This document shows positions 3,397 to 25,518 of a stretch of DNA of 32,000 bases, piece by piece. The number at the start of each line of letters is the position of its first letter. Within the stretch, counting starts at the first letter, position 1. The position numbers and the translations under genes are program-made. The DNA is from Cylindrospermopsis raciborskii Cr2010 (GTDB taxonomy: Bacteria > Cyanobacteriota > Cyanobacteriia > Cyanobacteriales > Nostocaceae), in assembly GCF_003367075.2 (NCBI RefSeq), contig NZ_CP065936.1:3660001-3692000 (forward strand), written 5' to 3'. Below the pieces are notes generated by a model. It saw only the letters and a list, made by a program, of their open reading frames with translations, searched no databases and was not told the origin of the DNA.

Positions 3397-4947
3397 TTAT
3401 TCCCAATCCGCTTGAATGAGGTTACGTTTGCTGCGACTAAAAACCAGTCCCACTTCATGGACTGTTTTCCCCGGTTCTCCTCTATACTTTTGTGCATAGT
3501 TACATTCCCGTATCTGTTTTAAGGCTCGGTTCTCTTTCACATTCTCCCCATCTACTACCTTGATTTCCATCACGTAAATATGATCACCCAGGATGGCAGT
3601 TATGTCCGCTTGACCATAGTTGGTGATATCTTCCGGGATGATGCGCGCATTTAAGGAACTCAAGAAAGCATATAGTACAGAAGCGTAGTAACCTTCAAAA
3701 TCAGCTAGGTCATTGTTGGTAAAGTTACGCCAAGGAATACCCGCAAATAGACGCTTTATCGCCTTCACTATTGATTCCAAATCCCCATTCCACATACACT
3801 CATAAAGGATATCTTGAATAGCGCTCTTTTCATTCACCATTCCTGTGTATACGTTGATGAACTGGTCGTTTAATGTCAGGCGAACTTCCATGTTAGGTAT
3901 TTTTAGGGCAAACATGGAACGTCGGTGACGGGTAAAGGTGCGCTCAATGGTCAAATACCCTGATTGGAACAGCAGGGTAACTGGATTGATTTGTTCTATC
4001 TCAAAGGACTTTAAAATCTCCTCAGTTACTTCTAGATGCTCCAAGTTGGGGAGGAAGTAGCGGTTAGTCTGAAACAGCCTAATTAAAAAGGTGGGGTTCC
4101 CCGTTTCAAACCAGTAGTTACCATACTCCATTCCCTCACGGATAAAAAGTAAGATATCATAAGGGTTATATACTGACTCACCACGCCATGAGTATCCATT
4201 ATACCAGAGACGCAGTTCATCCCAGTCCACCCCTTGCAAGTGCTGGGCGAAGGTTTGCTCCAAATCTTCCTGGGTATACCCACAAATAGTAGAAAAGTCC
4301 CTACTGATGGTAATGTCGGTGAGTTGATTTAACCCACTGAAAAGGCTGACTTTAGAGAATTTGGTGACCCCAGTCATGAAGATGAACTGGATGTTGGCAT
4401 CCTGTTGCTTGAGGACTGAGTATAGATTCTTGAGTCCTTCCCTCATTTCCGAAGCAATAGGTGGATTGTCTATATTGTCCAGGATGGGTTTGTCGTATTC
4501 ATCCACCAGCACCACAGCACGTTGTCCATATTTTGCCATGGCTTTACGAATCAAAGTTCCTAATTTTCCCGGTATATCAGTTGACTCATAGGATACACCC
4601 AGATGCTCTGCATTTTCGTGCAAGATATCCAGTATGCGCATATCCAGCTCTTGTCGGTTTTTTAATACCCCACCAGCAAAGTCTATTTTAATCACTGGGA
4701 ATTTTCTACTCCAGTCCCACTGGTCATGGATATAAAGCCCCTCAAATAATTTCTGATTCCCCTCGAAAATCTCCTTGAGGGTATCTACAAACAGACTTTT
4801 GCCAAAACGCCTGGGACGAGACAAAAAGAAAGCTCCAGGCTGTTTTATCAACTGGAAGGCAAGCTGTGTTTTGTCCACATAAACGCAGTTGCTCCCGCGT
4901 AGTTTATCTAGGGTGTTGATCCCCAGGGGAAGATTTTTGGGGTTCAT
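3397..4947 (-). CDS. AAA-ATPase-like P-loop protein with C-terminal PD-(D/E)XK nuclease domain (array 1, copy 1; blocks N1 + a)
   Basis: 516-aa intact ORF. Walker A-like SRPRRFGKS, Walker B VVLVDEYD, C-terminal D...E.K motif (QADITAILGDHIYVMEIKV). The architecture matches what I remember as the AAA-ATPase_like + PDDEXK_9 family. Confidence 0.85.
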   Translation of the reverse strand: MNPKNLPLGINTLDKLRGSNCVYVDKTQLAFQLIKQPGAFFLSRPRRFGKSLFVDTLKEIFEGNQKLFEGLYIHDQWDWSRKFPVIKIDFAGGVLKNRQELDMRILDILHENAEHLGVSYESTDIPGKLGTLIRKAMAKYGQRAVVLVDEYDKPILDNIDNPPIASEMREGLKNLYSVLKQQDANIQFIFMTGVTKFSKVSLFSGLNQLTDITISRDFSTICGYTQEDLEQTFAQHLQGVDWDELRLWYNGYSWRGESVYNPYDILLFIREGMEYGNYWFETGNPTFLIRLFQTNRYFLPNLEHLEVTEEILKSFEIEQINPVTLLFQSGYLTIERTFTRHRRSMFALKIPNMEVRLTLNDQFINVYTGMVNEKSAIQDILYECMWNGDLESIVKAIKRLFAGIPWRNFTNNDLADFEGYYASVLYAFLSSLNARIIPEDITNYGQADITAILGDHIYVMEIKVVDGENVKENRALKQIRECNYAQKYRGEPGKTVHEVGLVFSRSKRNLIQADWE

Positions 4948-4968
4948 ACTAATGGATATGTGCTTATT

Positions 4969-4997
4969 ATCTTAATCCCAGTTTATCTCTAATTCAA
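4969..4997 (-). promoter_or_regulatory. candidate sigma70-type promoter of copy 1 (TTGAAT-N17-TAAGAT)
   Basis: Minus strand: TTGAAT (4997-4992), 17-nt spacer, TAAGAT (4974-4969), 21 nt upstream of the ATG. Conserved upstream of copies 2 and 3. Confidence 0.35.
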
Positions 4998-5038
4998 TCA
5001 CCGGGTTTATTTATGTGAATTTATTTTAAATTAAAAGG

Positions 5039-5105
5039 GCGATTGCAAAGGATTACCCGTGATTTGGTTGAATTAACCCAAACCTAGAGACTGTCCGTGG
5101 GGGAG
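5039..5105. repeat. half unit (67 bp) of a 134-bp hairpin-rich intergenic element
   Basis: gcgattgcaaaggattacccgtgatttggttgaattaacccaaacctagagactgtccgtgggggag. The same sequence ends the 201-bp versions at 6800-7000 and 8695-8895. Confidence 0.8.
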
Positions 5106-5165
5106 ACAGGGAATAAACTCCCTTAACCGACTGGCTTTATCGCGGGTGATTACATTTATCTTAAT

Positions 5166-6728
5166 TTATTTCCAATCCGCTTGAATGAGGTTACGTTTGC
5201 TGCGACTAAAAACCAGTCCCACTTCATGGACTGTTTTTCCTGGTTCTCCTCTATACTTTTGTGCATAGTTACATTCCCGTATCTGTTTTAAGGCTCGGTT
5301 CTCTTTCACATTCTCCCCATCTACTACCTTGATTTCCATCACGTAAATATGATCACCCAGGATGGCAGTTATGTCCGCTTGACCATAGTTGGTGATATCT
5401 TCCGGGATAATGCGCGCATTTAAGGAACTCAAAAAAGCATATAGTACAGAAGCGTAGTAACCTTCAAAATCAGCTAGGTCATTGTTGGTAAAGTTACGCC
5501 AAGGAATACCCGCAAATAGACGCTTTATCGCCTTCACTATTGATTCCAAATCCCCATTCCACATACACTCATAAAGGATATCTTGAATAGCGCTCTTTTC
5601 ATTCACCATTCCTGTGTATACGTTGATGAACTGGTCGTTTAATGTCAGGCGAACTTCCATGTTAGGTATTTTTAGGGCAAACATGGAACGTCGGTGACGG
5701 GTAAAGGTGCGCTCAATGGTCAAATACCCTGATTGGAACAGCAGGGTAACTGGATTGATTTGTTCTATCTCAAAGGACTTTAAAATCTCCTCAGTTACTT
5801 CTAGATGCTCCAAGTTGGGGAGGAAGTAGCGGTTAGTCTGAAACAGCCTAATTAAAAAGGTGGGGTTCCCCGTTTCAAACCAGTAGTTACCATACTCCAT
5901 TCCCTCACGGATAAAAAGTAAGATATCATAAGGGTTATATACTGACTCACCACGCCATGAGTATCCATTATACCAGAGACGCAGTTCATCCCAGTCCACC
6001 CCTTGCAAGTGCTGGGCGAAGGTTTGCTCCAAATCTTCCTGGGTATACCCACAAATAGTAGAAAAGTCCCTACTGATGGTAATGTCGGTGAGTTGATTTA
6101 ACCCACTGAAAAGGCTGACTTTAGAGAATTTGGTGACCCCAGTCATGAAGATGAACTGGATGTTGGCATCCTGTTGCTTGAGGACTGAGTATAGATTCTT
6201 GAGTCCTTCCCTCATTTCCGAAGCAATAGGTGGATTGTCTATATTGTCCAGGATGGGTTTGTCGTATTCATCCACCAGCACCACAGCACGTTGTCCATAT
6301 TTTGCCATGGCTTTACGAATCAAAGTTCCTAATTTTCCCGGTATATCAGTTGACTCATAGGATACACCCAGATGCTCTGCATTTTCGTGCAAGATATCCA
6401 GTATGCGCATATCCAGCTCTTGTCGGTTTTTTAATACCCCACCAGCAAAGTCTATTTTAATCACTGGGAATTTTCTACTCCAGTCCCACTGGTCATGGAT
6501 ATAAAGCCCCTCAAATAATTTCTGATTCCCCTCGAAAATCTCCTTGAGGGTATCTACAAACAGACTTTTGCCAAAACGCCTGGGACGAGACAAAAAGAAG
6601 CGTCCAGGAATGCGTATCAGACGGTGAGCTATTTCGGTTTTGTCCACATAGACGCAATTGTTTTCCCGCAGCACACTTAGGGTGTTGATTCCCAAGGGGA
6701 GATTTTTGGGGTTCATACTAATGCTCAT
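5166..6728 (-). CDS. AAA-ATPase-like/PD-(D/E)XK protein (array 1, copy 2; blocks N2 + a)
   Basis: 520-aa intact ORF with the same motifs as copy 1. From residue ~45 on, the only protein difference from copy 1 is the last residue (K vs E). Possible shorter start MNPKN at 6716. Confidence 0.85.
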   Translation of the reverse strand: MSISMNPKNLPLGINTLSVLRENNCVYVDKTEIAHRLIRIPGRFFLSRPRRFGKSLFVDTLKEIFEGNQKLFEGLYIHDQWDWSRKFPVIKIDFAGGVLKNRQELDMRILDILHENAEHLGVSYESTDIPGKLGTLIRKAMAKYGQRAVVLVDEYDKPILDNIDNPPIASEMREGLKNLYSVLKQQDANIQFIFMTGVTKFSKVSLFSGLNQLTDITISRDFSTICGYTQEDLEQTFAQHLQGVDWDELRLWYNGYSWRGESVYNPYDILLFIREGMEYGNYWFETGNPTFLIRLFQTNRYFLPNLEHLEVTEEILKSFEIEQINPVTLLFQSGYLTIERTFTRHRRSMFALKIPNMEVRLTLNDQFINVYTGMVNEKSAIQDILYECMWNGDLESIVKAIKRLFAGIPWRNFTNNDLADFEGYYASVLYAFLSSLNARIIPEDITNYGQADITAILGDHIYVMEIKVVDGENVKENRALKQIRECNYAQKYRGEPGKTVHEVGLVFSRSKRNLIQADWK

Positions 6729-6729
6729 T

Positions 6730-6758
6730 ATCTTAGCTCTAGTTTATCTCTAATTCAA
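6730..6758 (-). promoter_or_regulatory. candidate promoter of copy 2 (TTGAAT-N17-TAAGAT)
   Basis: Minus strand: TTGAAT 6758-6753, 17-nt spacer, TAAGAT 6735-6730. The -10 ends 1 nt before the first ATG (6728), so a transcript would probably start inside ATGAGCATTAGT and use the MNPKN ATG nearly leaderless. Confidence 0.3.
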
Positions 6759-6799
6759 TCACCAGGGTTATTTATATGAATTTATTTTAAATTAAAAGG

Positions 6800-7000
6800 G
6801 CGATTGGGAAGCACTACTTATGGGATTAACCATAATTGTTTGAATTAACCCATACCTAGAGACTGTCCGTGGGGGAGTTTCGTAGGTTGGGTTGAGGAAC
6901 GAAACCCAACAAACCCACGGGATACATATAAACGCGATTGCAAAGGATTACCCGTGATTTGGTTGAATTAACCCAAACCTGGAGACTGTCCGTGGGGGAG
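6800..7000. repeat. 1.5 units (134 + 67 bp) of the hairpin-rich intergenic element
   Basis: gcgattg recurs at 6800 and 6934. Contains cgtaggttgggttgaggaacgaaacccaac (GTTGGGTT/AACCCAAC hairpin) at 6881-6910. This extra 134-bp unit is the main source of the longer period of units 2 and 3. Confidence 0.85.
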
Positions 7001-7060
7001 ACAGGGAATAAACTCCCTTAACCGACTGGCTTTATCGCGGGTGATTACATTTATCTTAAT

Positions 7061-8623
7061 TTATTTCCAATCCGCTTGAATGAGGTTACGTTTGCTGCGA
7101 CTAAAAACCAGTCCCACTTCATGGACTGTTTTTCCTGGTTCTCCTCTATACTTTTGTGCATAGTTACATTCCCGTATCTGTTTTAAGGCTCGGTTCTCTT
7201 TCACATTCTCCCCATCTACTACCTTGATTTCCATCACGTAAATATGATCACCCAGGATGGCAGTTATGTCCGCTTGACCATAGTTGGTGATATCTTCCGG
7301 GATAATGCGCGCATTTAAGGAACTCAAAAAAGCATATAGTACAGAAGCGTAGTAACCTTCAAAATCAGCTAGGTCATTGTTGGTAAAGTTACGCCAAGGA
7401 ATACCCGCAAATAGACGCTTTATCGCCTTCACTATTGATTCCAAATCCCCATTCCACATACACTCATAAAGGATATCTTGAATAGCGCTCTTTTCATTCA
7501 CCATTCCTGTGTATACGTTGATGAACTGGTCGTTTAATGTCAGGCGAACTTCCATGTTAGGTATTTTTAGGGCAAACATGGAACGTCGGTGACGGGTAAA
7601 GGTGCGCTCAATGGTCAAATACCCTGATTGGAACAGCAGGGTAACTGGATTGATTTGTTCTATCTCAAAGGACTTTAAAATCTCCTCAGTTACTTCTAGA
7701 TGCTCCAGGTTGGGGAGGAAGTAGCAGTTAGTCTGAAACAGCTTAATTAAAAAGGTGGGGTTCCCCGTTTCAAACCAGTAGTTGCCATACTCCATTCCCT
7801 CACGGATAAAAAGTAAGATATCATAAGGGTTATATACTGACTCACCACGCCATGAGTACCCATTATACCAGAGACGCAGTTCATCCCAGTCTACCCCTTG
7901 CAAGTGCTGGGCGAAGGTTTGCTCCAAATCTTCCTGGGTATACCCACAAATAGTAGAAAAGTCCCTACTGATGGTAATGTCGGTGAGTTGATTTAACCCA
8001 CTGAAAAGGCTGACTTTAGAGAATTTGGTGACCCCAGTCATGAAGATGAACTGGATGTTGGCATCCTGTTCCTTGAGGACTGAGTATAAATTCTTGAGCC
8101 CCTCTCTCATTTCCGAAGCAATAGGTGGATTGTCTATATTGTCCAGGATGGGTTTGTCGTATTCATCCACCAGCACCACGGTTCGTTCTCCAAATCGTTG
8201 GCATGCACCCGCAATGATTTCTCCGAAACGACCTTGAATATCCTCTAGTTCATAGTCCACTCCCAGGGATTGGGCAGTTTTTAAAAAAATACCATTAATT
8301 TTTTGGTCCAGCTCTTGTCGGTTTTTTAATACCCCACCAGCAAAGTCTATTTTAATCACTGGGAATTTTCTACTCCAGTCCCATTGGTCATGGATATAAA
8401 GCCCCTCAAATAATTTCTGATTCCCCTCGAAAATCTCCTTGAGGGTATCTACAAACAGACTTTTGCCAAAACGCCTGGGACGAGACAAAAAGAAGCGTCC
8501 AGGAATGCGTATCAGACGGTGAGCTATTTCGGTTTTGTCCACATAGACGCAATTGTTTTCCCGCAGCACACTTAGGGTGTTGATTCCCAAGGGGAGATTT
8601 TTGGGGTTCATACTAATGCTCAT
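7061..8623 (-). CDS. AAA-ATPase-like/PD-(D/E)XK protein (array 1, copy 3; blocks N2 + b)
   Basis: 520-aa intact ORF. Divergent central block QKINGIFLKTAQSLGVDYELEDIQGRFGEIIAGACQRFGERTVV between Walker A and Walker B. Rest near-identical to copies 1 and 2. Confidence 0.85.
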   Translation of the reverse strand: MSISMNPKNLPLGINTLSVLRENNCVYVDKTEIAHRLIRIPGRFFLSRPRRFGKSLFVDTLKEIFEGNQKLFEGLYIHDQWDWSRKFPVIKIDFAGGVLKNRQELDQKINGIFLKTAQSLGVDYELEDIQGRFGEIIAGACQRFGERTVVLVDEYDKPILDNIDNPPIASEMREGLKNLYSVLKEQDANIQFIFMTGVTKFSKVSLFSGLNQLTDITISRDFSTICGYTQEDLEQTFAQHLQGVDWDELRLWYNGYSWRGESVYNPYDILLFIREGMEYGNYWFETGNPTFLIKLFQTNCYFLPNLEHLEVTEEILKSFEIEQINPVTLLFQSGYLTIERTFTRHRRSMFALKIPNMEVRLTLNDQFINVYTGMVNEKSAIQDILYECMWNGDLESIVKAIKRLFAGIPWRNFTNNDLADFEGYYASVLYAFLSSLNARIIPEDITNYGQADITAILGDHIYVMEIKVVDGENVKENRALKQIRECNYAQKYRGEPGKTVHEVGLVFSRSKRNLIQADWK

Positions 8624-8624
8624 T

Positions 8625-8653
8625 ATCTTAGCTCTAGTTTATCTCTAATTCAA
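8625..8653 (-). promoter_or_regulatory. candidate promoter of copy 3 (TTGAAT-N17-TAAGAT)
   Basis: Minus strand: TTGAAT 8653-8648, 17-nt spacer, TAAGAT 8630-8625. Same geometry as copy 2. Confidence 0.3.
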
Positions 8654-8694
8654 TCACCAGGGTTATTTATATGAATTTATTTTAAATTAAAAGG

Positions 8695-8895
8695 GCGATT
8701 GGGAAGCACTACTTATGGGATTAACTATAATTGTTTGAATTAACCCATACCTAGAGACTGTCCGTGGGGGAGTTTCGTAGGTTGGGTTGAGGAACGAAAC
8801 CCAACAAACCCACGGGATACATATAAACGCGATTGCAAAGGATTACCCGTGATTTGGTTGAATTAATCCAAACCTGGAGACTGTCCGTGGGGGAG
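8695..8895. repeat. 1.5 units of the hairpin-rich intergenic element
   Basis: Near-identical to 6800-7000, with a few substitutions (e.g. aaccataatt -> aactataatt, gagacaggg -> gagataggg). Confidence 0.85.
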
Positions 8896-8955
8896 ATAGG
8901 GAATAAACTCCCTTAACCGACTGGCTTTATCGCGGGTGATTACATTTATCTTAAT

Positions 8956-9953
8956 TTATTTCCAATCCGCTTGAATGAGGTTACGTTTGCTGCGACTAAA
9001 AACCAGTCCCACTTCATGGACTGTTTTCCCCGGTTCTCCTCTATACTTTTGTGCATAGTTACATTCCCGTATCTGTTTTAAGGCTCGGTTCTCTTTCACA
9101 TTCTCCCCATCTACTACCTTGATTTCCATCACGTAAATATGATCACCCAGGATGGCAGTTATGTCCGCTTGACCATAGTTGGTGATATCTTCCGGGATAA
9201 TGCGCGCATTTAAGGAACTCAAAAAAGCATATAGTACAGAAGCGTAGTAACCTTCAAAATCAGCTAGGTCATTGTTGGTAAAGTTACGCCAAGGAATACC
9301 CGCAAATAGACGCTTTATCGCCTTCACTATTGATTCCAAATCCCCATTCCACATACACTCATAAAGGATATCTTGAATAGCGCTCTTTTCATTCACCATT
9401 CCTGTGTATACGTTGATGAACTGGTCGTTTAATGTCAGGCGAACTTCCATGTTAGGTATTTTTAGGGCAAACATGGAACGTCGGTGACGGGTAAAGGTGC
9501 GCTCAATGGTCAAATACCCTGATTGGAACAGCAGGGTAACTGGCATGCACCCGCAATGATTTCTCCGAAACGACCTTGAATATCCTCTAGTTCATAGTCC
9601 ACTCCCAGGGATTGGGCAGTTTTTAAAAAAATACCATTAATTTTTTGGTCCAGCTCTTGTCGGTTTTTTAATACCCCACCAGCAAAGTCTATTTTAATCA
9701 CTGGGAATTTTCTACTCCAGTCCCATTGGTCATGGATATAAAGCCCCTCAAATAATTTCTGATTCCCCTCGAAAATCTCCTTGAGGGTATCTACAAACAG
9801 ACTTTTGCCAAAACGCCCGGGACGAGACAAAAAGAAAGCTCCAGGCTGTTTTATCAACTGGAAGGCAAGCTGTGTTTTGTCCACATAAACGCAGTTGCTC
9901 CCGCGTAGTTTATCTAGGGTGTTGATCCCCAGGGGAAGATTTTTGGGGTTCAT
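8956..9953 (-). pseudogene. AAA-ATPase-like/PD-(D/E)XK gene, copy 4 (blocks N1 + b), inactivated by a 553-bp internal deletion
   Basis: Split into ORFs 9510-9953 (N-terminal 139 aa then out of frame) and 8956-9546 (C-terminal ~195 aa). The junction ggtaacTGGcatgcaccc at 9541-9543 joins the equivalents of 7648 and 8202 of copy 3. 553 is not a multiple of 3. Walker B and the central domain are lost. It also has RPRRFGKS -> RPGRFGKS. Confidence 0.85.
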
Positions 9954-10085
9954 ACTAATGGATATGTGCTTATTATCTTAATCCCAGTTTATCTCTAATT
10001 TAATCATCGGGGTTATTTAGGGGTTGCTAAATAAATCTAAAACCCCGGTGAATAAGGAGTTTCAGTCCCAGAAAAAAGGAATAAA

Positions 10086-10373
10086 ATGCAAGAAAAAGGT
10101 GTAAAATGGGTCAAAACCCTTGCACCAAACTATATTGAGATATATCGCAAACAAAAGCAACAAGACACAACACCGGAAGACTTTGAACTATCCCTTGAGG
10201 GAAAAATAGCACCGGATAACCGCTGGGTCATCTTGGCTAAAATAATACCATGGTCACAATTTGAAGCGGAATATGCAGCAATATTTTCAGAAGGAAAAGG
10301 CGCACCAGCAGACATCAGTTATCCTAATAAATTATGTAAAGAATTTCCGCTCCTTTTTATCCTGGGAGGTTAA
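10086..10373 (+). mobile_element. truncated IS5/IS1182-like transposase gene (N-terminal InsH/DUF772-type fragment only)
   Basis: The translation ...KIAPDNRWVILAKIIPWSQFEAEYAAIFSEGKGAPA matches the N-terminal region of IS5-superfamily transposases as I remember them. Similarity stops after GAPA (~10310) and no DDE domain follows. A possible terminal sequence ggggttgctaaataaatc lies at ~10019. Confidence 0.5.
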
Positions 10374-10551
10374 GAATGGCTCGCGCTAAATCCCTAGCTT
10401 CCGACCAGCTTTCATTTAACGCTTCCTGCAAACGAGATGTTAGAGCGGTATTTTGCCTCAAAAGTTTAGCAATAGCTGTGCGTTGAACACGAATAGTTGC
10501 TCGCCAACTATTTGTCTGCTTCCAATAGGGAATTTTTATTAATTTTATCAT
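10357..10551 (-). CDS. hypothetical short ORF / gene fragment downstream of array-2 copy A
   Basis: 64-aa ORF starting 44 nt after the stop of copy A. No family recognised. Its first ~20 nt are duplicated downstream of copy C (14018-14037), where the reading frame immediately diverges. It may be a remnant. Confidence 0.25.
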   Translation of the reverse strand: MIKLIKIPYWKQTNSWRATIRVQRTAIAKLLRQNTALTSRLQEALNESWSEARDLARAILNLPG

Positions 10552-10595
10552 ACCATTTATTTATTCCTGCTAAAAACAGTCAATTTTACAAACAC

Positions 10596-12155
10596 TCAAG
10601 CCCTAATCACAGTAATTCTATATTGATTTTCTGTCACCACCATCTCAGTTGATAATCTTTCTTCCATTGGTAAGGCATTTTTCCGCCTATCAAAGATAAA
10701 TAACCAACCAAAATCTAAACCCAAACGCCCTAAATACGATTCTAATTGTTCAATTCCATCACCTTGAGGATCGCGTTTTTTATCCCGCCACACTTTTAAT
10801 TCAATCCCTAAAATAACATCTTTATACTGCAAACATAAATCCATTCTATCACTACCAATGGCATATTCCCTTTCTAAAACCCCTCCACCATTAACTACAC
10901 GATGTAAAAAAGCCATTAATACAATATGGGGTGCAATTTCATGATATCCTGTGCTACCTAATAATGGTTCTCCATGTTGTCGCCAAAACTTGAGAAATGC
11001 AGTTAATAAAGCATCAATATTTAATTCACCTGCTGATGTTAACCAAGTTGGTGCAATCATCGGTAAAGAAGCCATTGGTGTGACTGTTAAAACTCTGGGT
11101 AACACTTCCCGATAAATGGGATTAGCAATAGTTAATCCTCCATAGGGGTGCATTTTACATAATCCTAAATCTATCACAAATTGAATATCATCATTAGGTA
11201 TATCCCCTAATTCTAAACCTGCTAACATTGGTTCAATAATTGCCTTTATTCTTGGTTCTCTTAACCTTTCTGCTAAACTATCTAAATGAGTATCTTGACG
11301 AATTATTAATATTTCCTTAGCTGTTAAAATATGTTCTTTGGTAATAGCAATACTTCTATCTTTTACCATTTTTTCTACAATTTCCTTAGCTAAAGCATTC
11401 ACTAACCAAGGTTGTCCTTGGGTTAAATCATAGGCTGTTTCTATAGCTTCAGGTGTGAAAATTTGCCCAGTTGCTGCTGTATGTTGTTGATATAATTCTC
11501 CTACTTCTGCAAGATTAAAATTTCTCATAGTCAAAGAAGCAACTTTTATATTAAAAGGACTAGAAGTATTTAATCTGTCACTACCTCCCGATGCTACTTT
11601 ATAATCTCGCACATCTCGTAAACCAATTAATCCTACTGATGAAGGAAAATTTTCCGGACGTTTAGGAAAACCATCTCTTAATTGTCGTAAAACTGAAATT
11701 AATGTTTGGTCTTGTAAAGAATCAATTTCATCTATAAATAATACTATGGGACGATTTATAGCTTTTGCCCAACCTCTTAAAAAAGCTTTAATTCTGCTTC
11801 CTGCTTCTTCCTGTTGCCATTGTTTAGCAGGAGGGTGTAATTCTTGTGGTAAACTATCTTGGATTGTATTATACCATGCCCCTAAAATTGCTAATTCTGC
11901 GGTGGTAGGATCATGATTAAATGCACTGCCTACTTCTACGGATACCATGACTGCGGCATAATTTCCGCTGTCCGTAAGTTGCTGTGCCAGGGATAACATG
12001 GCGGTGGTTTTCCCTGTTTGTCGTGGTGCGTGTAGGACAAAATAACTTTCTTGTTCAATTAACGTTGATAAGTCGGGTAAACGACTGGTGGTTGAGATGG
12101 TATAGTTTTTTTTAGGGTTACAAGGACCTGCAATATTAAACCAGCGATTGATCAT
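10596..12155 (-). CDS. P-loop NTPase (ORC/Cdc6-like AAA) with C-terminal PD-(D/E)XK-like motif (array 2, copy A)
   Basis: 519-aa intact ORF. Walker A HAPRQTGKTT, Walker B IVLFIDEID, C-terminal DRMDLCLQYKDVILGIELKVW (D..E.K). Block haplotype 1-a-1-L (see findings). Confidence 0.85.
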   Translation of the reverse strand: MINRWFNIAGPCNPKKNYTISTTSRLPDLSTLIEQESYFVLHAPRQTGKTTAMLSLAQQLTDSGNYAAVMVSVEVGSAFNHDPTTAELAILGAWYNTIQDSLPQELHPPAKQWQQEEAGSRIKAFLRGWAKAINRPIVLFIDEIDSLQDQTLISVLRQLRDGFPKRPENFPSSVGLIGLRDVRDYKVASGGSDRLNTSSPFNIKVASLTMRNFNLAEVGELYQQHTAATGQIFTPEAIETAYDLTQGQPWLVNALAKEIVEKMVKDRSIAITKEHILTAKEILIIRQDTHLDSLAERLREPRIKAIIEPMLAGLELGDIPNDDIQFVIDLGLCKMHPYGGLTIANPIYREVLPRVLTVTPMASLPMIAPTWLTSAGELNIDALLTAFLKFWRQHGEPLLGSTGYHEIAPHIVLMAFLHRVVNGGGVLEREYAIGSDRMDLCLQYKDVILGIELKVWRDKKRDPQGDGIEQLESYLGRLGLDFGWLFIFDRRKNALPMEERLSTEMVVTENQYRITVIRA

Positions 12156-12225
12156 GATTTTGGTAATAGGTGAACTCTTTAAGTTTAGATCATTTTTGGG
12201 TTAAGGTGTTGGAATAGATCAACAT

Positions 12226-13782
12226 TTATGCCCTAATCACAGTAATTCTATATTGATTTTCTGTCACCACCACATCAGTTGATAACCTTTCTTCCATTGG
12301 TGAGGCATTTTTCCGCCTATCAAAGATAAATAACCAACCAAAATCTAAACCCAAACGCCCCAAATACGATTCTAATTGTTCAATTCCATCACCTTGAGGA
12401 TCGCGCTTTTTATCCCGCCATACTTTTAATTCAATCCCTAAAATAACATCTTTATACTGCAAACATAAATCCATTCTATCACTACCAATGGCATATTCCC
12501 TTTCTAAAATTCCTCCACCATTAACCACACGATGTAAAAAAGCCATTAATACTATATGTGGTGCAATTTCATGATAAGCAGCACTACTTAATAATGGTTC
12601 TCCATGTTGTCGCCAAAATTTGAGAAATGCAGTTAATAAACTATCTATATTTAATTCACCATTTGCAGTCAACCAACTAGGACTAATTAAGGGTAAACTA
12701 TCCTGAGTTCCTTGGACTAAAACACGGGGAATTACTTCCCTATATATGGGGTTAGAAATAACTAATCCCCCCATTGGATCACGTCTTAATAATCCTAAAT
12801 CTATTAAATATTGGCGATCGTCTGCTAAAGTATCAGGTAATGTTTGTCCTGCTAAAATGGGTTCAATAATATTTTTAACTCGGTTTTCTCTAAGTCTTTC
12901 GGCTAAACTATCTAAATGAGTATCTTGACGAGTAATCAATGTTTCCTTAGCTGTTAAAATATGTTCTTTGGTAATAGCAATACTTCTATCTTTTACCATT
13001 TTTTCTACAATTTCCTTAGCTAAAGCATTCACTAACCAAGGTTGTCCTTGGGTTAAATCATAGGCTGTTTCTATAGCTTCAGGTGTGAAAATTTGCCCAG
13101 TTGCTGCTGTATGTTGTTGATATAATTCTCCTACTTCTGCAAGATTAAAATTTCTCATAGTCAAAGAAGCAACTTTTATATTAAAAGGACTAGAAGTATT
13201 TAATCTGTCACTACCTCCCGATGCTACTTTATAATCTCGCACATCTCGTAAACCAATTAATCCTACTGATGAGGGAAAATTTTCTGGACGGTTAGGAAAA
13301 CCATCTCTTAATTGTCGTAAAACTGAAATTAATGTTTGGTCTTGTAAAGAATCAATTTCATCTATAAATAATACTATGGGACGATTTATAGCTTTTGCCC
13401 AAGCTGATAAAAAAGCCTTAATTCTGCTTCCTGGTTCTTCCTGTTGCCATTGTTTAATAGGTGGTTGTAATTCTTTGGGTAAGCGGATATTTATTGTATT
13501 ATACCATGCCCCTAAAATTGCTAATTCTGCGGTGGTAGGATCATGATTAAATGCACTGCCTACTTCTACGGATACCATGACTGCGGCATAATTTCCGGTA
13601 TTAGTAAGTTGCTGTGCCAGGGATAACATGGCGGTGGTTTTCCCTGTTTGTCGTGGTGCGTGAAGAACAAAATAACTACGTTGTTGAATTAACGCCTCTA
13701 AATCTGGTAATCTAACTGTGGGAGATAAGAGATAGTGGATATCGTTTGAACATGGACCTGCAATATTAAACCAGCGAGTCAT
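12226..13782 (-). CDS. P-loop NTPase/PD-(D/E)XK-like protein (array 2, copy B)
   Basis: ORF 12226-13821. I place the start at MTRWFNIAG (ATG 13782), homologous to the MINRWFNIAG start of copies A, C and D. 518 aa. Haplotype 2-b-2-S. Confidence 0.85.
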   Translation of the reverse strand: MTRWFNIAGPCSNDIHYLLSPTVRLPDLEALIQQRSYFVLHAPRQTGKTTAMLSLAQQLTNTGNYAAVMVSVEVGSAFNHDPTTAELAILGAWYNTINIRLPKELQPPIKQWQQEEPGSRIKAFLSAWAKAINRPIVLFIDEIDSLQDQTLISVLRQLRDGFPNRPENFPSSVGLIGLRDVRDYKVASGGSDRLNTSSPFNIKVASLTMRNFNLAEVGELYQQHTAATGQIFTPEAIETAYDLTQGQPWLVNALAKEIVEKMVKDRSIAITKEHILTAKETLITRQDTHLDSLAERLRENRVKNIIEPILAGQTLPDTLADDRQYLIDLGLLRRDPMGGLVISNPIYREVIPRVLVQGTQDSLPLISPSWLTANGELNIDSLLTAFLKFWRQHGEPLLSSAAYHEIAPHIVLMAFLHRVVNGGGILEREYAIGSDRMDLCLQYKDVILGIELKVWRDKKRDPQGDGIEQLESYLGRLGLDFGWLFIFDRRKNASPMEERLSTDVVVTENQYRITVIRA

Positions 13783-13909
13783 AGAATTTTGGTAATAGGT
13801 GAACTCTTTAAGTTTACACATTTATTTGAGAAAATTATGATCTGGCATTATAAAAAGGTTCACTAGTAAGGAGACAGTGTATTTGTCACTGAAACACCAA
13901 CAGGTATTA

Positions 13910-14002
13910 TTATAACTGCTGGTAATCCTGATTTTGAAAAAGCAATGGAGGCTTACCACCACGTTTATTGGGTTCAATTGTGATATAATCTCTGTAATTC
14001 AT
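13910..14002 (-). pseudogene. possible DUF433-like gene fragment in the insertion between copies B and C
   Basis: 30-codon ORF MNYRDYITIEPNKRGGKPPLLFQNQDYQQL. The first 18 aa resemble the (W/R)DYIxxDPxxxxGKP N-terminal motif of DUF433 proteins from memory. The expected CI.GTRI continuation is absent in this frame. Confidence 0.25.
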
Positions 14003-14076
14003 GATGTGATGAGGGCATTTTTATTAATTTTATCATACCATTTATTCCTGCTAAAAACAGTGAATTTTGCAAACAC

Positions 14077-15636
14077 TCAAGCCCTAATCACAGTAATTCT
14101 ATATTGATTTTCCGTCACCACCACCTCAGTTGATAACCTTTCTTCCATTGGTAAGGCATTTTTCCGCCTATCAAAGATAAATAACCAACCAAAATCTAAA
14201 CTCAAACGCCCTAAATACGATTCTAGTTGTTCAATTCCATCACCTTGAGGATCGCGTTTTTTATCCCGCCACACTTTTAATTCAATCCCTAAAATAACAT
14301 CTTTATACTGCAAACATAAATCCATTCTATCACTACCAATGGCATATTCCCTTTCTAAAACCCCTCCACCATTAACTACACGATGTAAAAAAGCCATTAA
14401 TACAATATGGGGTGCAATTTCATGATATCCTGTGCTACCTAATAATGGTTCTCCATGTTGTCGCCAAAACTTGAGAAATGCAGTTAATAAAGCATCAATA
14501 TTTAATTCACCTGCTGATGTTAACCAAGTTGGTGCAATCATCGGTAAAGAAGCCATTGGTGTGACTGTTAAAACTCTGGGTAACACTTCCCGATAAATGG
14601 GATTAGCAATAGTTAATCCTCCATAGGGGTGCATTTTACATAATCCTAAATCTATCACAAATTGAATATCATCATTAGGTATATCCCCTAATTCTAAACC
14701 TGCTAACATTGGTTCAATAATTGCCTTTATTCTTGGTTCTCTTAACCTTTCTGCTAAACTATCTAAATGAGTATCTTGACGAATTATTAATATTTCCTTA
14801 GCTGTTAAAATATGTTCTTTGGTAATAGCAATACTTCTATCTTTTACCATTTTTTCTACAATTTCCTTAGCTAAAGCATTCACTAACCAAGGTTGTCCTT
14901 GGGTTAAATCATAGGCTGTTTCTATAGCTTCAGGTGTGAAAATTTGCCCAGTTGCTGCTGTATGTTGTTGATATAATTCTCCTACTTCTGCAAGATTAAA
15001 ATTTCTCATAGTCAAAGAAGCAACTTTTATATTAAAAGGACTAGAAGTATTTAATCTGTCACTACCTCCCGATGCTACTTTATAATCTCGCACATCTCGT
15101 AAACCAATTAATCCTACTGATGAGGGAAAATTTTCTGGACGGTTAGGAAAACCATCTCTTAATTGTCGTAAAACTGAAATTAATGTTTGGTCTTGTAAAG
15201 AATCAATTTCATCTATAAATAATACTATGGGACGATTTATAGCTTTTGCCCAAGCTGATAAAAAAGCCTTAATTCTGCTTCCTGGTTCTTCCTGTTGCCA
15301 TTGTTTAATAGGTGGTTGTAATTCTTTGGGTAAGCGGATATTTATTGTATTATACCATGCCCCTAAAATTGCTAATTCTGCGGTGGTAGGATCATGATTA
15401 AATGCACTGCCTACTTCTACGGATACCATGACTGCGGCATAATTTCCGGTATCAGTAAGTTGCTGTGCCAGGGATAACATAGCGGTGGTTTTCCCTGTTT
15501 GTCGTGGTGCGTGTAGGACAAAATAACTTTCTTGTTCAATTAACGTTGATAAGTCGGGTAAACGACTGGTGGTTGAGATGGTATAGTTTTTTTTAGGGTT
15601 ACAAGGACCTGCAATATTAAACCAGCGATTGATCAT
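14077..15636 (-). CDS. P-loop NTPase/PD-(D/E)XK-like protein (array 2, copy C)
   Basis: 519-aa intact ORF. Haplotype 1-b-1-L. Private substitution GRLGLDFG -> GRLSLDFG. Confidence 0.85.
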   Translation of the reverse strand: MINRWFNIAGPCNPKKNYTISTTSRLPDLSTLIEQESYFVLHAPRQTGKTTAMLSLAQQLTDTGNYAAVMVSVEVGSAFNHDPTTAELAILGAWYNTINIRLPKELQPPIKQWQQEEPGSRIKAFLSAWAKAINRPIVLFIDEIDSLQDQTLISVLRQLRDGFPNRPENFPSSVGLIGLRDVRDYKVASGGSDRLNTSSPFNIKVASLTMRNFNLAEVGELYQQHTAATGQIFTPEAIETAYDLTQGQPWLVNALAKEIVEKMVKDRSIAITKEHILTAKEILIIRQDTHLDSLAERLREPRIKAIIEPMLAGLELGDIPNDDIQFVIDLGLCKMHPYGGLTIANPIYREVLPRVLTVTPMASLPMIAPTWLTSAGELNIDALLTAFLKFWRQHGEPLLGSTGYHEIAPHIVLMAFLHRVVNGGGVLEREYAIGSDRMDLCLQYKDVILGIELKVWRDKKRDPQGDGIEQLESYLGRLSLDFGWLFIFDRRKNALPMEERLSTEVVVTENQYRITVIRA

Positions 15637-15706
15637 GATTTTGGTAATAGGTGAACTCTTTAAGTTTAGATCATTTTTGGGTTAAGGTGTTGGAATAGAT
15701 CAACAT

Positions 15707-17266
15707 TTATGCCCTAATCACAGTAATTCTATATTGATTTTCTGTCACCACCACATCAGTTGATAACCTTTCTTCCATTGGTGAGGCATTTTTCCGCCTA
15801 TCAAAGATAAATAACCAACCAAAATCTAAACCCAAACGCCCTAAATACGATTCTAATTGTTCAATTCCATCACCTTGAGGATCGCGTTTTTTATCCCGCC
15901 ACACTTTTAATTCAATCCCTAAAATAACATCTTTATACTGCAAACATAAATCCATTCTATCACTACCAATGGCATATTCCCTTTCTAAAATTCCTCCACC
16001 ATTAACCACACGATGTAAAAAAGCCATTAATACTATATGTGGTGCAATTTCATGATAAGCAGCACTACTTAATAATGGTTCTCCATGTTGTCGCCAAAAT
16101 TTGAGAAATGCAGTTAATAAACTATCTATATTTAATTCACCATTTGCAGTCAACCAACTAGGACTAATTAAGGGTAAACTATCCTGAGTTCCTTGGACTA
16201 AAACACGGGGAATTACTTCCCTATATATGGGGTTAGAAATAACTAATCCCCCCATTGGATCACGTCTTAATAATCCTAAATCTATTAAATATTGGCGATC
16301 GTCTGCTAAAGTATCAGGTAATGTTTGTCCTGCTAAAATGGGTTCAATAATATTTTTAACTCGGTTTTCTCTAAGTCTTTCGGCTAAACTATCTAAATGA
16401 GTATCTTGACGAGTAATCAATGTTTCCTTAGCTGTTAAAATATGTTCTTTGGTAATAGCAATACTTCTATCTTTTACCATTTTTTCTACAATTTCCTTAG
16501 CTAAAGCATTCACTAACCAAGGTTGTCCTTGGGTTAAATCATAGGCTGTTTCTATAGCTTCAGGTGTGAAAATTTGCCCAGTTGCTGCTGTATGTTGTTG
16601 ATATAATTCTCCTACTTCTGCAAGATTAAAATTTCTCATAGTCAAAGAAGCAACTTTTATATTAAAAGGACTAGAAGTATTTAATCTGTCACTACCTCCC
16701 GATGCTACTTTATAATCTCGCACATCTCGTAAACCAATTAATCCTACTGATGAGGGAAAATTTTCTGGACGGTTAGGAAAACCATCTCTTAATTGTCGTA
16801 AAACTGAAATTAATGTTTGGTCTTGTAAAGAATCAATTTCATCTATAAATAATACTATGGGACGATTTATAGCTTTTGCCCAAGCTGATAAAAAAGCCTT
16901 AATTCTGCTTCCTGGTTCTTCCTGTTGCCATTGTTTAATAGGTGGTTGTAATTCTTTGGGTAAGCGGATATTTATTGTATTATACCATGCCCCTAAAATT
17001 GCTAATTCTGCGGTGGTAGGATCATGATTAAATGCACTGCCTACTTCTACGGATACCATGACTGCGGCATAATTTCCGGTATTAGTAAGTTGCTGTGCCA
17101 GGGATAACATAGCGGTGGTTTTCCCTGTTTGTCGTGGTGCGTGTAGGACAAAATAACTTTCTTGTTCAATTAACGTTGATAAGTCGGGTAAACGACTGGT
17201 GGTTGAGATGGTATAGTTTTTTTTAGGGTTACAAGGACCTGCAATATTAAACCAGCGATTGATCAT
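15707..17266 (-). CDS. P-loop NTPase/PD-(D/E)XK-like protein (array 2, copy D)
   Basis: 519-aa intact ORF. Haplotype 1-b-2-S, i.e. the N-terminus of A/C joined to the C-terminal half of B. Confidence 0.85.
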   Translation of the reverse strand: MINRWFNIAGPCNPKKNYTISTTSRLPDLSTLIEQESYFVLHAPRQTGKTTAMLSLAQQLTNTGNYAAVMVSVEVGSAFNHDPTTAELAILGAWYNTINIRLPKELQPPIKQWQQEEPGSRIKAFLSAWAKAINRPIVLFIDEIDSLQDQTLISVLRQLRDGFPNRPENFPSSVGLIGLRDVRDYKVASGGSDRLNTSSPFNIKVASLTMRNFNLAEVGELYQQHTAATGQIFTPEAIETAYDLTQGQPWLVNALAKEIVEKMVKDRSIAITKEHILTAKETLITRQDTHLDSLAERLRENRVKNIIEPILAGQTLPDTLADDRQYLIDLGLLRRDPMGGLVISNPIYREVIPRVLVQGTQDSLPLISPSWLTANGELNIDSLLTAFLKFWRQHGEPLLSSAAYHEIAPHIVLMAFLHRVVNGGGILEREYAIGSDRMDLCLQYKDVILGIELKVWRDKKRDPQGDGIEQLESYLGRLGLDFGWLFIFDRRKNASPMEERLSTDVVVTENQYRITVIRA

Positions 17267-17336
17267 GATTTTGGTAATAGGTGAACTCTTTAAGTTTAGA
17301 TCATTTTTGGGTTAAGGTGTTGGAATAGATCAACAT

Positions 17337-18893
17337 TTATGCCCTAATCACAGTAATTCTATATTGATTTTCTGTCACCACCACATCAGTTGATAACCTT
17401 TCTTCCATTGGTGAGGCATTTTTCCGCCTATCAAAGATAAATAACCAACCAAAATCTAAACCCAAACGCCCTAAATACGATTCTAATTGTTCAATTCCAT
17501 CACCTTGAGGATCGCGTTTTTTATCCCGCCACACTTTTAATTCAATCCCTAAAATAACATCTTTATACTGCAAACATAAATCCATTCTATCACTACCAAT
17601 GGCATATTCCCTTTCTAAAACCCCTCCACCATTAACTACACGATGTAAAAAAGCCATTAATACAATATGGGGTGCAATTTCATGATATCCTGTGCTACCT
17701 AATAATGGTTCTCCATGTTGTCGCCAAAACTTGAGAAATGCAGTTAATAAAGCATCAATATTTAATTCACCTGCTGATGTTAACCAAGTTGGTGCAATCA
17801 TCGGTAAAGAAGCCATTGGTGTGACTGTTAAAACTCTGGGTAACACTTCCCGATAAATGGGATTAGCAATAGTTAATCCTCCATAGGGGTGCATTTTACA
17901 TAATCCTAAATCTATCACAAATTGAATATCATCATTAGGTATATCCCCTAATTCTAAACCTGCTAACATTGGTTCAATAATTGCCTTTATTCTTGGTTCT
18001 CTTAACCTTTCTGCTAAACTATCTAAATGAGTATCTTGACGAATTATTAATATTTCCTTAGCTGTTAAAATATGTTCTTTGGTAATAGCAATACTTCTAT
18101 CTTTTACCATTTTTTCTACAATTTCCTTAGCTAAAGCATTCACTAACCAAGGTTGTCCTTGGGTTAAATCATAGGCTGTTTCTATAGCTTCAGGTGTGAA
18201 AATTTGCCCAGTTGCTGCTGTATGTTGTTGATATAATTCTCCTACTTCTGCAAGATTAAAATTTCTCATAGTCAAAGAAGCAACTTTTATATTAAAAGGA
18301 CTAGAAGTATTTAATCTGTCACTACCTCCCGATGCTACTTTATAATCTCGCACATCTCGTAAACCAATTAATCCTACTGATGAGGGAAAATTTTCTGGAC
18401 GGTTAGGAAAACCATCTCTTAATTGTCGTAAAACTGAAATTAATGTTTGGTCTTGTAAAGAATCAATTTCATCTATAAATAATACTATGGGACGATTTAT
18501 AGCTTTTGCCCAAGCTGATAAAAAAGCCTTAATTCTGCTTCCTGGTTCTTCCTGTTGCCATTGTTTAATAGGTGGTTGTAATTCTTTGGGTAAGCGGATA
18601 TTTATTGTATTATACCATGCCCCTAAAATTGCTAATTCTGCGGTGGTAGGATCATGATTAAATGCACTGCCTACTTCTACGGATACCATGACTGCGGCAT
18701 AATTTCCGGTATCAGTAAGTTGCTGTGCCAGGGATAACATGGCGGTGGTTTTCCCTGTTTGTCGTGGTGCGTGTAGGACAAAATAACTACGTTGTTGAAT
18801 TAACGCCTCTAAGTCTGGTAATCTGACTGTGGGAGATAGGACATAGTGGATATCGTTTGAACATGGACCTGCAATATTAAACCAGCGAGTCAT
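17337..18893 (-). CDS. P-loop NTPase/PD-(D/E)XK-like protein (array 2, copy E)
   Basis: ORF 17337-18959. Start placed at MTRWFNIAG (ATG 18893). 518 aa. Haplotype 2-b-1-S. Confidence 0.85.
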   Translation of the reverse strand: MTRWFNIAGPCSNDIHYVLSPTVRLPDLEALIQQRSYFVLHAPRQTGKTTAMLSLAQQLTDTGNYAAVMVSVEVGSAFNHDPTTAELAILGAWYNTINIRLPKELQPPIKQWQQEEPGSRIKAFLSAWAKAINRPIVLFIDEIDSLQDQTLISVLRQLRDGFPNRPENFPSSVGLIGLRDVRDYKVASGGSDRLNTSSPFNIKVASLTMRNFNLAEVGELYQQHTAATGQIFTPEAIETAYDLTQGQPWLVNALAKEIVEKMVKDRSIAITKEHILTAKEILIIRQDTHLDSLAERLREPRIKAIIEPMLAGLELGDIPNDDIQFVIDLGLCKMHPYGGLTIANPIYREVLPRVLTVTPMASLPMIAPTWLTSAGELNIDALLTAFLKFWRQHGEPLLGSTGYHEIAPHIVLMAFLHRVVNGGGVLEREYAIGSDRMDLCLQYKDVILGIELKVWRDKKRDPQGDGIEQLESYLGRLGLDFGWLFIFDRRKNASPMEERLSTDVVVTENQYRITVIRA

Positions 18894-19009
18894 GATGATT
18901 TTGGTAATAGGTGAACTCTTTAAGTTTACACATTTATTTGGAAATGTTGGAGAATTCACTCCCCTACGGCCAACTTTGTAAAGAAGTGTAAATTAATCCC
19001 CATATTTCC

Positions 19010-19038: not shown

Positions 19039-19238
19039 GAATGTTGGTAAGATAATTAATAGATAGCTGCCCAAATCTAAATAAAATATAAGCCGAACCA
19101 TAAGGTGCAGAGCTTTGACGGTCTACATTATCTCAGTTCGTACCAACCCGACACCCACAGCTACCAGGGTCGAGTGTCAGGGGTTTTCTGTCTCAAGAGC
19201 AGTCACCAATATTATAAAGCGAGTCCCAGCCTCAATAC

Positions 19239-25500: not shown

Positions 25501-25518
25501 AGGTATATAAATATATAT

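Follow-up and report, generated by a model that had tools for sequence, protein, structure and literature searches.

A locus of tandem ATPase-nuclease genes

We analyzed a stretch of 32,000 nucleotides (nt) from the cyanobacterium Cylindrospermopsis raciborskii Cr2010 (contig NZ_CP065936.1, positions 3,660,001 to 3,692,000), referred to here as the window. Positions 3397 to 18959 hold nine genes on the minus strand, eight of them intact, arranged as two tandem arrays, one of family A (A1 to A4) and one of family B (B1 to B5). The coordinates of the open reading frames (ORFs) bear out this count, which an earlier note on the same DNA had given. The locus represents a tandem expansion, specific to this lineage, of two ATPase-nuclease families that are known and related to each other; the island around it is variable and has many toxin-antitoxin and nuclease genes. 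The earlier note had called it a novel system, a description that we drop, as both families are large and already catalogued (PMC1913061, PMC6387759, and the AAA_35/CyrO family). It was right to place a P-loop ATPase at the N terminus and a D...E-x-K domain at the C terminus of both families, as Pfam matches and invariant residues demonstrate. As the structure models show, each protein is predicted to consist of an AAA+ ATPase, a lid, a winged helix, and a C-terminal PD-(D/E)XK nuclease. The ATPase is of the archaeal-ATPase/Orc1-Cdc6/RuvB type, with the unusual Walker A motif PR-x-x-GK[ST].

Domain architecture and kinship of the two families

Family A is a member of DUF1703, with which it has both Pfam domains, the motifs, and a helical middle region in common. 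Its proteins match PF09820 over the full profile (positions 1 to 201; 204 to 212 bits against a cutoff of 26.1; E = 1e-60) and PF08011, or PDDEXK_9, at 64 bits (cutoff, 25.5; E = 1e-17). DUF1703 was defined in 2007 and has an atypical Walker A, RPRRFGKS, and the Walker B DEYD (PMC1913061, Knizewski et al.); A1 to A3 carry SRPRRFGKS and VDEYD. The nuclease residues E422, D452, E465, K467, and Q482 do not vary among 28 homologues. An AlphaFold2 (AF2) model of A3, with a predicted local distance difference test score (pLDDT) of 71.5, gave structural matches to Apaf-1, ORC2, and Cdc6. NCBIfam has a model for neither family A nor family B.

Family B matches AAA_35 (PF14516) over positions 13 to 277 of the 331 in the profile, by a thin margin (31 to 36 bits; cutoff, 27). 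Neither PF09820 nor PF08011 matches it, the C terminus not even at an E value of ≤10; in a lenient Pfam scan the C terminus gave sub-threshold matches to DpnII-MboI and NucS_C alone, and the winged-helix segment gave none. Even so, all of 64 homologues with 59 to 92% identity to B1 have E406, D439, E452, K454, and Q470. In the AF2 model of B1 (pLDDT, 81.4; predicted template modelling [TM] score, 0.74), the nuclease elements are a helix at 405 to 421; strands at 426 to 430, 439 to 444 (with D439), and 447 to 456 (with E452 and K454); a helix at 464 to 478 (with Q470); and a strand at 482 to 489. The ATPase-lid-winged-helix part of the model has its best PDB match in 2qen (E = 1e-9; TM score of 0.65 normalized to the target), with further matches to 2fna, RuvB, and the Orc1/Cdc6-DNA complex 2qby. 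PDB searches by sequence, with single proteins and with profiles of A and B, returned nothing meaningful, and a literature search for PF14516/AAA_35 found unrelated papers only.

The 90%-identity cluster of B1 includes PNK11878.1 and PNK18176.1, which are CyrO in NCBI naming. CyrO is encoded by the last ORF in the cylindrospermopsin (cyr) cluster of C. raciborskii, and by this naming the window B proteins share its cluster; in contrast, the window locus has no cyr genes, and the published G+C content of cyrO is 43%, compared with ∼36% for the window B genes. CyrO has been described as AAA-like and proposed to be a regulator or a DNA-binding protein (PMC2885083). The gene occurs in a non-toxic strain, in Raphidiopsis it is located away from the cyr cluster, and other producers lack it; the authors doubted that it has a role in toxin synthesis, for which it seems dispensable (PMC3922686). 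The published description mentions neither a winged helix nor a C-terminal PD-(D/E)XK nuclease, and it does not relate CyrO to DUF1703. On the basis of our models, CyrO is better described as a putative nuclease of the AAA+/winged-helix/PD-(D/E)XK architecture with kinship to DUF1703.

The two families had been taken as unrelated, with no obvious similarity to each other. Profile alignment with hhalign does not support this separation. With deep profiles, the nuclease domains of A and B align with a probability of 89% (E = 2e-6), their D/ExK/Q motifs in register, and the ATPase domains align over 205 columns with a probability of 47% (E = 2e-4); here PRQTGKT falls over PRRFGKS, and the two Walker B motifs coincide. 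The depth of the profiles matters, as shallow ones (28 sequences, 83 to 97% identity) reached the P-loop alone. The middle regions of A and B gave no hhalign profile alignment. These alignments indicate that A and B are distant homologues.

Copies differ in discrete, recombining cassettes

Differences between the copies of each family are concentrated in discrete two-allele blocks (Table 1), with a dispersion index of 9 to 18 compared with at most 2.7 in 5,000 permutations. In both A and B, two blocks occur in all four allele combinations, and the four-gamete test is thus passed, which implies recombination between blocks. The catalytic motifs are identical in the intact copies, so the proposal of invariant motifs combined with reshuffled blocks stands. 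When the arrays of two other genomes were included, a third hot block became visible in family A (nt 1021 to 1230), with nucleotide divergence of as much as ∼50% per 60-nt window beside stretches of near-identity.

Synonymous divergence (dS) is 0.2 to 1.4 in the blocks and 0.03 to 0.07 in the backbone, and the ratio of nonsynonymous to synonymous divergence (dN/dS, or omega) is 0.22 to 0.55 and 0.09 to 0.16, respectively. The high dS of the blocks relative to that of the backbone points to old alleles in a homogenized backbone. With omega below 1, the same contrast led us to reject local hypermutation as the source of the cassettes. No positive selection in the cassettes is seen by dN/dS, a weak test here, with dS near saturation in some blocks. 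The cassettes are old, highly diverged alleles that have been recombined into different combinations, while the backbones of the copies are kept near-identical through gene conversion or unequal crossing-over.

The cassette alleles also circulate in Microcystis, Aphanizomenon, and Dolichospermum. Block 3 of B2 and B4 is 96 to 98% identical to Microcystis proteins, and that of B1, B3, and B5 is 99% identical to an Aphanizomenon protein. Within Cylindrospermopsis, block 2 of B5 carries allele b in the window and allele c in the other two genomes, L001 (another C. raciborskii strain) and L002. This difference shows gene conversion on a recent time scale, in agreement with the earlier suggestion that conversion is ongoing.

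Cassettes occupy equivalent positions in both families

In both families, block 1 lies ahead of the Walker A strand and block 2 is a helical insert between strand 2 and the Walker B strand (residues 91 to 135 in B and 106 to 148 in A). The block 2 inserts of A and B align with each other in profile comparison. The amino acid changes of block 3 in B (residues 301 to 375) fall in the winged helix, modelled in B1 as helices at 291 to 329 and a hairpin at 333 to 343, and in the stretch linking it to the nuclease. In A, the third block is in the equivalent region ahead of the nuclease. Across each family as a whole, the cassette segments are the segments of highest entropy. In Orc1/Cdc6, the initiator-specific-motif insert and the winged helix both contact DNA. 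By analogy, the insert and winged-helix cassettes of the window proteins are probably at DNA-contacting positions.

The likeness to Orc1/Cdc6 and RuvB, AAA+ proteins whose C-terminal winged helix binds DNA, consists of the fold of the ATPase module and the domain order, with a winged helix after the lid and a helical insert that probably corresponds in place to the initiator-specific motif. The window proteins differ from both in adding a nuclease domain and in being patchy, multicopy, and horizontally mobile, and they have no apparent connection with replication origins or Holliday junctions. The likeness is one of mechanism and not of family membership. For the ATPase, lid, and winged helix of B, the highest-ranking structural matches are 2qen and 2fna; they belong to the archaeal ATPases, which likewise join AAA+, helix-turn-helix, and PD-(D/E)XK-type nuclease domains in one polypeptide (PMC4158269). 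These are multicopy genes found in islands and predicted to serve defence or plasmids (PMC4158269, Makarova et al. 2014). Their nuclease subfamily is different, however, and there is no significant sequence match to the PDB chains.

Arrays built by duplication and found in other strains

The arrays arose through tandem and segmental duplication. The three 70-nt spacers between neighbouring B genes are mutually 100% identical, a signature of tandem duplication or unequal crossing-over. Furthermore, B1 and B3 are 98.0% identical, B2 and B4 are 97.2% identical, and the flank downstream of B1 is the same as that downstream of B3, which indicates that a two-gene unit, B4-B3, was duplicated into B2-B1. 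The spacers between A genes are versions of one sequence. The fourth copy, A4, has lost the stretch from Walker B through the middle region in an internal deletion of ∼560 nt, and its Walker A reads RPGRFGKS (an R-to-G change).

Near-identical repeats of 1.6 to 3.4 kb are difficult for short-read assembly, and an array produced by collapsed or mis-joined repeats had to be considered. We regard this explanation as practically negligible. Another C. raciborskii strain (L001) has five B and three A genes at the syntenic site, and its independent 4.07-Mb contig repeats the order and copy number. The complete chromosome of C. curvispora carries a related array of one B and five A genes, and each window copy has a distinct allele combination. 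The exact proteins also occur in several assemblies, A1 in six contigs of C. raciborskii assemblies and B1 as UJS06112.1 of C. raciborskii G7. The array is thus genuine. Window and L001 are 99.85% identical on the A side and 99.04% on the B side; a segment of ∼1.6 kb (8905 to 10526), comprising A4, an insertion sequence (IS) remnant, and most of the spacer between the arrays, is missing from L001.

Several details of the layout concern gene starts and spacers. The longest ORF of A2 is 520 amino acids (aa), but an inner ATG is probably the start, giving 516 aa; the true start of B2 is probably the ATG at 13782 (MTRWFN); and the B5 ORF extends to a GTG at 18959, while homologues agree with the ATG at 18893. 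The two 332-nt spacers between A genes contain an internal duplication of ∼114 nt that is missing from the 218-nt one, together with a G+C-rich hairpin, GTTGGGTTTCGTTCCTCAACCCAAC. This hairpin element has no match in Rfam and may be a small dispersed repeat. The spacer between the arrays holds, on the plus strand, the remnant of the N terminus of an IS transposase, MQEKGVKWVKTLAPNYIEIYRKQKQ...DNRWVILAKIIPWSQFEAEY. The junction between B2 and B3 contains MNYRDYITIEPNKRGGKP, a piece from the N-terminal end of a DUF433-type gene; in other genomes, B genes are bordered by complete DUF433/DUF5615 pairs.

Table 1. Genes, spacers, variable blocks, and flanks of the two arrays (window positions unless given as coding sequence [CDS] nt; letters are block alleles)
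Feature	Position	Strand	Description
A1	3397..4947	-	Intact family A, 516 aa, AAA-ATPase_like + PDDEXK_9; block 1 a, block 2 p
A2	5166..6728	-	Intact family A; block 1 b, block 2 p
A3	7061..8623	-	Intact family A; block 1 b, block 2 q; structure-modelled copy
A4	8956..9953	-	Family A pseudogene in two ORFs; block 1 a, block 2 q
A-A spacers	6729..7060, 8624..8955, 4948..5165		332, 332, and 218 nt; versions of one sequence
A-B array spacer	9954..10595	.	Downstream flank in common with B3 copy, plus IS-transposase remnant
B1	10596..12155	-	Intact family B, 519 aa; block 1 x, block 2 unique, block 3 m; predicted CyrO-like AAA_35 ATPase + winged helix + PD-(D/E)XK; structure-modelled copy
B2	12226..13821	-	Intact family B; block 1 y, block 3 n
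B2-B3 junction	13822..14076	.	255 nt between two sub-arrays; repeats flank downstream of B1
B3	14077..15636	-	Intact family B; block 1 x, block 3 m
B4	15707..17266	-	Intact family B; block 1 x, block 3 n
B5	17337..18893	-	Intact family B; block 1 y, block 3 m
B-B spacers	12156..12225, 15637..15706, 17267..17336	.	70 nt each
Family A block 1	CDS nt 30-129		{A1,A4} vs {A2,A3}
Family A block 2	CDS nt 240 to ∼445		{A1,A2} vs {A3,A4}
Family B block 1	CDS nt 64-171		{B1,B3,B4} vs {B2,B5}
Family B block 2	CDS nt 246-576		{B1} vs remaining copies
Family B block 3	CDS nt 908-1339		{B1,B3,B5} vs {B2,B4}
Left flank	842..2734		Ser/Thr kinase gene, next to 163-aa ORF
Strain-variable island edge	19192..20937	-	114-aa ORF + Uma2-family (PF05685) gene; DUF29-Fic-DUF29 instead in L001
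Right flank	20390..20950		Uma2 gene, then aminopeptidase P

Distribution and genomic neighbourhoods

Both families are large, with at least 8,000 candidates in each search. Among the matches listed, family B has 773 cluster representatives (50% identity) at an E value of ≤1e-30. At least 595 species genomes contain it; most are cyanobacterial, and others are those of Sorangium, other Polyangiales, Acidobacteriota, Chloroflexota, and Planctomycetota. Most of 86 B loci hold a single copy (81 loci); three hold two, one holds three (Pseudanabaena minima), and five copies are seen in Cylindrospermopsis alone. Family A is absent within 10 kb at 84 of these 86 loci, and adjacency of A and B among 92 loci is restricted to Cylindrospermopsis (the window, L001, and L002). 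All-against-all clustering of neighbours in ∼80 genomes found no conserved partner gene around B. We therefore rejected a functional unit composed of both families, and we infer that their adjacency is a lineage-specific accident of a common insertion hotspot.

Family B is a recurrent cargo of a developmentally excised element, since it lies between the halves of hupL in several Nostocales. The hupL excision elements of PCC 7120 and of at least five Nostocales species contain it, and its companions there include XisC, PIN/Phd, and TIR-SEFIR(-GUN4) genes. Examples of B between the two hupL halves are Nostoc linckia NIES-25 (L003, 4355 to 11551) and L088 (6564 to 17594), a complete-genome relative of Anabaena/Nostoc PCC 7120 whose exact protein is also BAB72642.1; in at least three other Nostocales (L007, L011, and L012), HupL N-terminal fragments adjoin the B gene. 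In Microcystis, the neighbours are Fic-MazE, Uma2, and resolvase genes, and elsewhere they include DUF433/DUF5615, GmrSD, NsnA, DndD/PbeC, a restriction enzyme, bSEFIR, and integrases. The B proteins of Cylindrospermopsis, Dolichospermum/Aphanizomenon, and Microcystis (P0008, P0009, P0062, and P0075) are 86 to 92% identical. As Microcystis is of a different order, this is in our judgement an unusually high value, and it suggests recent gene flow among bloom-forming cyanobacteria.

Plasmids carry both families, with 68 plasmid records for A and 18 for B, 8 of the latter from Pseudanabaena. These are eight large plasmids of two strains with B at 60 to 63% identity to B1, one of them with two sites. 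On the two Pseudanabaena plasmids that we inspected (L093 and L094), B lies beside CHAT-TPR or beside DISARM DrmA/DUF1998, BrnTA, and NACHT genes. The idea of a replication initiator was rejected because B is away from the replication and partition genes on these plasmids. Neither A nor B was found in annotated phage genomes; family A matches unannotated faecal "Bacteriophage sp." fragments at 30 to 34% identity.

The neighbours of family A are Uma2, DUF29, AlbA_2-HATPase, HicAB, PIN/Phd, ParE/RelB, and nucleotidyltransferase genes. The exact A3 protein is also encoded on CP073250, a complete C. raciborskii chromosome with a second array of four A copies elsewhere. This array (L096, 1 to 10551; at ∼1.67 Mb) is followed by DUF29, three Uma2 genes, and DUF4351. 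The 522-aa ORFs between its A copies were considered as family B and rejected. The interleaved ORFs (317, 194, and 522 aa) give low-complexity pseudo-matches only and may be repeat DNA rather than genes.

Possible functions of the arrays

We lean toward reading the locus as a strain-variable accessory island with two arrays of stand-alone ATP-dependent nucleases, likely with a role in conflict with mobile elements. In the mechanism that we propose, binding of ATP would lead to assembly on nucleic acid, as in Orc1/Cdc6 and RuvB, the winged helix and the insert in the place of the initiator-specific motif would touch the substrate, and cleavage by the nuclease domain would follow. The cassettes would set the specificity for substrates or triggers, or would permit escape from inhibitors, and having many paralogues would broaden coverage, with every gene acting alone. 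Conflict with mobile genetic elements would here mean host defence or competition between elements. The toxin-antitoxin, Uma2, DUF29, excision-element, and plasmid neighbours fit such a role, and the intactness of eight of the nine copies, together with the low backbone omega, counts as evidence of selection. A conflict or defence role is, we infer, the best-supported function.

Several observations weigh against this interpretation. PADLOC-DB v2 gave no significant match for either family (none at all for A, and for B mad8 alone, a weak P-loop match with an E value of 1e-4 over ∼40 residues around Walker B), and the literature searched holds no experiment on a member of either family. The link between cassettes and DNA contact comes from fold topology and analogy, and the A3 model is mediocre in the middle, with a pLDDT below 50 at residues 252 to 292. 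Neighbourhoods are mixed, with housekeeping GTPases among them, and our tallies of neighbours are raw counts without a background rate. In 22 copies from the window and the two other genomes, there are two or three alleles per block, and the cassettes have an omega below 1. Finally, the arrays of L001 and the window are almost identical, differing in one cassette, which indicates that diversification is slow.

The genes could instead be selfish, serving the maintenance of their carrier elements by exclusion, addiction, or DNA processing, with the arrays as left-over cargo amplified at a hotspot. The recent horizontal transfer suggested by the identity of 86 to 92% between Microcystis and Nostocales would fit this, as would the hupL elements of Nostocales and PCC 7120, the plasmid records, the IS remnants and nearby recombinases, and the atypical base composition; for the archaeal ATPases, Makarova et al. 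(PMC4158269) had likewise left "or some plasmid gene" open. Yet the gene travels without terminal repeats or a dedicated recombinase, lies away from replication and partition genes on the inspected plasmids, and occupies the same chromosomal array site in two strains. We consider this unlikely as a full account, although it overlaps heavily with defence, many defence genes being borne on mobile elements, and the two are hard to separate. A purely neutral origin, in which recent tandem duplicates form no selected bank and the mosaic is a conversion by-product of two or three old paralogue lineages, seems quite improbable to us. It would account for the two or three alleles per block, the block omega below 1, the decay of A4, the near-static arrays in two strains, the variable copy number between species (five B and three A versus one B and five A), and the single B copy in most genomes. 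It accounts poorly for eight intact ORFs out of nine with all catalytic residues kept and a backbone under strong purifying selection. Moreover, the blocks are the most variable segments family-wide and sit at homologous positions in two long-diverged families, which is unexpected for random conversion tracts, and family A has undergone independent expansions within the same genome as well as in other phyla (PMC6387759).

A cellular role in regulation or DNA metabolism, with B as a cylindrospermopsin regulator or a DNA repair or replication factor, is very improbable. It is suggested by the NCBI name of close relatives ("polyketide biosynthesis operon protein CyrO"), by the proposal that CyrO is a regulator or DNA-binding protein (PMC2885083), and by the Orc1/Cdc6- and RuvB-like fold of the ATPase. 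However, the occurrence of cyrO in a non-toxic strain and off the cluster, its absence from producers, and the doubts of the authors (PMC3922686) speak against a function in toxin synthesis, and the window has no cyr genes. The family is also patchy, multicopy, plasmid-borne, and strain-variable, unlike housekeeping factors, and a conserved nuclease active site is unexpected for a pure regulator.

Beyond the accessory-island reading that we prefer, the DUF1703 and CyrO types might form one large superfamily of single-protein, ATP-gated anti-phage or anti-plasmid nucleases whose specificity for targets or triggers lies in exchangeable cassettes, namely the insert and the winged helix, with the arrays as a recombining bank. 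We offer this as a tentative possibility, one that we would not presume. If true, it would be an innate-immunity counterpart of HsdS shuffling on an Orc1/Cdc6-like chassis. In type I restriction, the target recognition domains of HsdS are shuffled, for example, at phase-variable hsdS loci. The likeness to the window arrays is in the evolutionary mode only, as recombination on conserved backbones swaps diverged specificity cassettes between co-resident copies. In contrast to hsdS loci, the window has no methyltransferase, HsdR, invertase, or inverted repeats, and all its copies are same-strand, complete genes.

Among known defence systems, Avs/AVAST STAND NTPases with Mrr-like effectors resemble the window proteins in combining an NTPase switch with a nuclease effector and in their island location. 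The domain order is reversed, however, with the effector at the C terminus in the window proteins, which also lack a long repeat sensor. RADAR RdrA, PARIS, and Old have been listed with PF09820-like ATPase hits (PMC10952713), but the window has no partner such as RdrB or AriB, and the PADLOC models of NTPase-nuclease systems are unmatched. The closest precedent for the expansion is that of Cardinium cCpun, with 25 DUF1703 paralogues and intragenic recombination among them (PMC6387759, Siozios et al. 2019); ∼10% of the species that have the DUF1703 family carry at least 10 copies (PMC6387759). Paralogue expansion and recombination between copies are common to both cases. The Cardinium paralogues have a mean identity of 39% at the amino acid level, though, whereas family A in the window consists of young tandem duplicates with 92 to 97% nt identity, whose variation is in discrete cassettes at defined structural positions.

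The DUF1703 architecture, the AAA_35/CyrO family, and the Cardinium expansion with recombination were thus already known. Our analysis adds the remote homology of A and B, the predicted nuclease and winged helix of CyrO-like proteins, and the finding that the old exchangeable cassettes sit at homologous positions, which probably contact nucleic acid. It also adds CyrO-like genes to the recurrent hupL-element cargo of heterocystous cyanobacteria, and the identity among bloom-forming genera suggests that gene flow is active. A and B are very large families, spread over bacteria, archaea, and plasmids, and belong to genomic "dark matter"; the locus is a compact natural experiment in which near-isogenic paralogues differ in two or three defined cassettes. 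If the cassettes set substrate specificity, cassette swaps would be a direct route to the recognized target.

Island setting, base composition, and flanks

The accessory-island setting that had been suggested for the arrays is supported, with the strain-variable edge and the atypical composition in its favour; other strains have Fic/DUF29 at the array site. That no partner genes are present holds loosely, with the qualification that a Uma2 gene, the DUF433 fragment, and the IS remnant are in or beside the array. Neither an Rfam family nor a tRNA gene marks the island borders. A promoter and terminator scan was uninformative, with 18 promoter-like sites where 49 were expected.

The two halves of the locus deviate in composition from host genes in opposite directions. 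The family B half has a G+C content of 0.356 and a third-position G+C content (GC3) of 0.20, and the family A half has values of 0.428 and 0.48, with a host-gene GC3 of 0.29 to 0.35. The region had been described as AT-rich, which applies to the B half only, as the GC3 of the A half is above that of host genes. The HIP1 octamer (GCGATCGC) is indeed missing from the array, with no occurrence in positions 1 to 24000 and all seven in 24675 to 31766, within the last 7.3 kb; its absence is not confined to the array, and flanking core genes within 1 to 24000 lack it too. These apparent core genes near the array, with zero HIP1, are the kinase, aminopeptidase P, and PfkB kinase genes, and they indicate that HIP1 density is uneven beyond the island.

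Two small ORFs at the borders have no Pfam match. One, of 163 aa (2856 to 3347, plus strand), adjoins the A array in L001 as well but not in C. curvispora, and the other is the 114-aa ORF at 19239 to 19583 (minus strand). Farther to the right, a PALP-domain (threonine-synthase-like) gene at 23840 to 25144 has a small N-terminal match to the phage family NinF (PF05810; 31.6 bits); the probable cause is a short motif resembling a zinc ribbon, and not descent from a phage.

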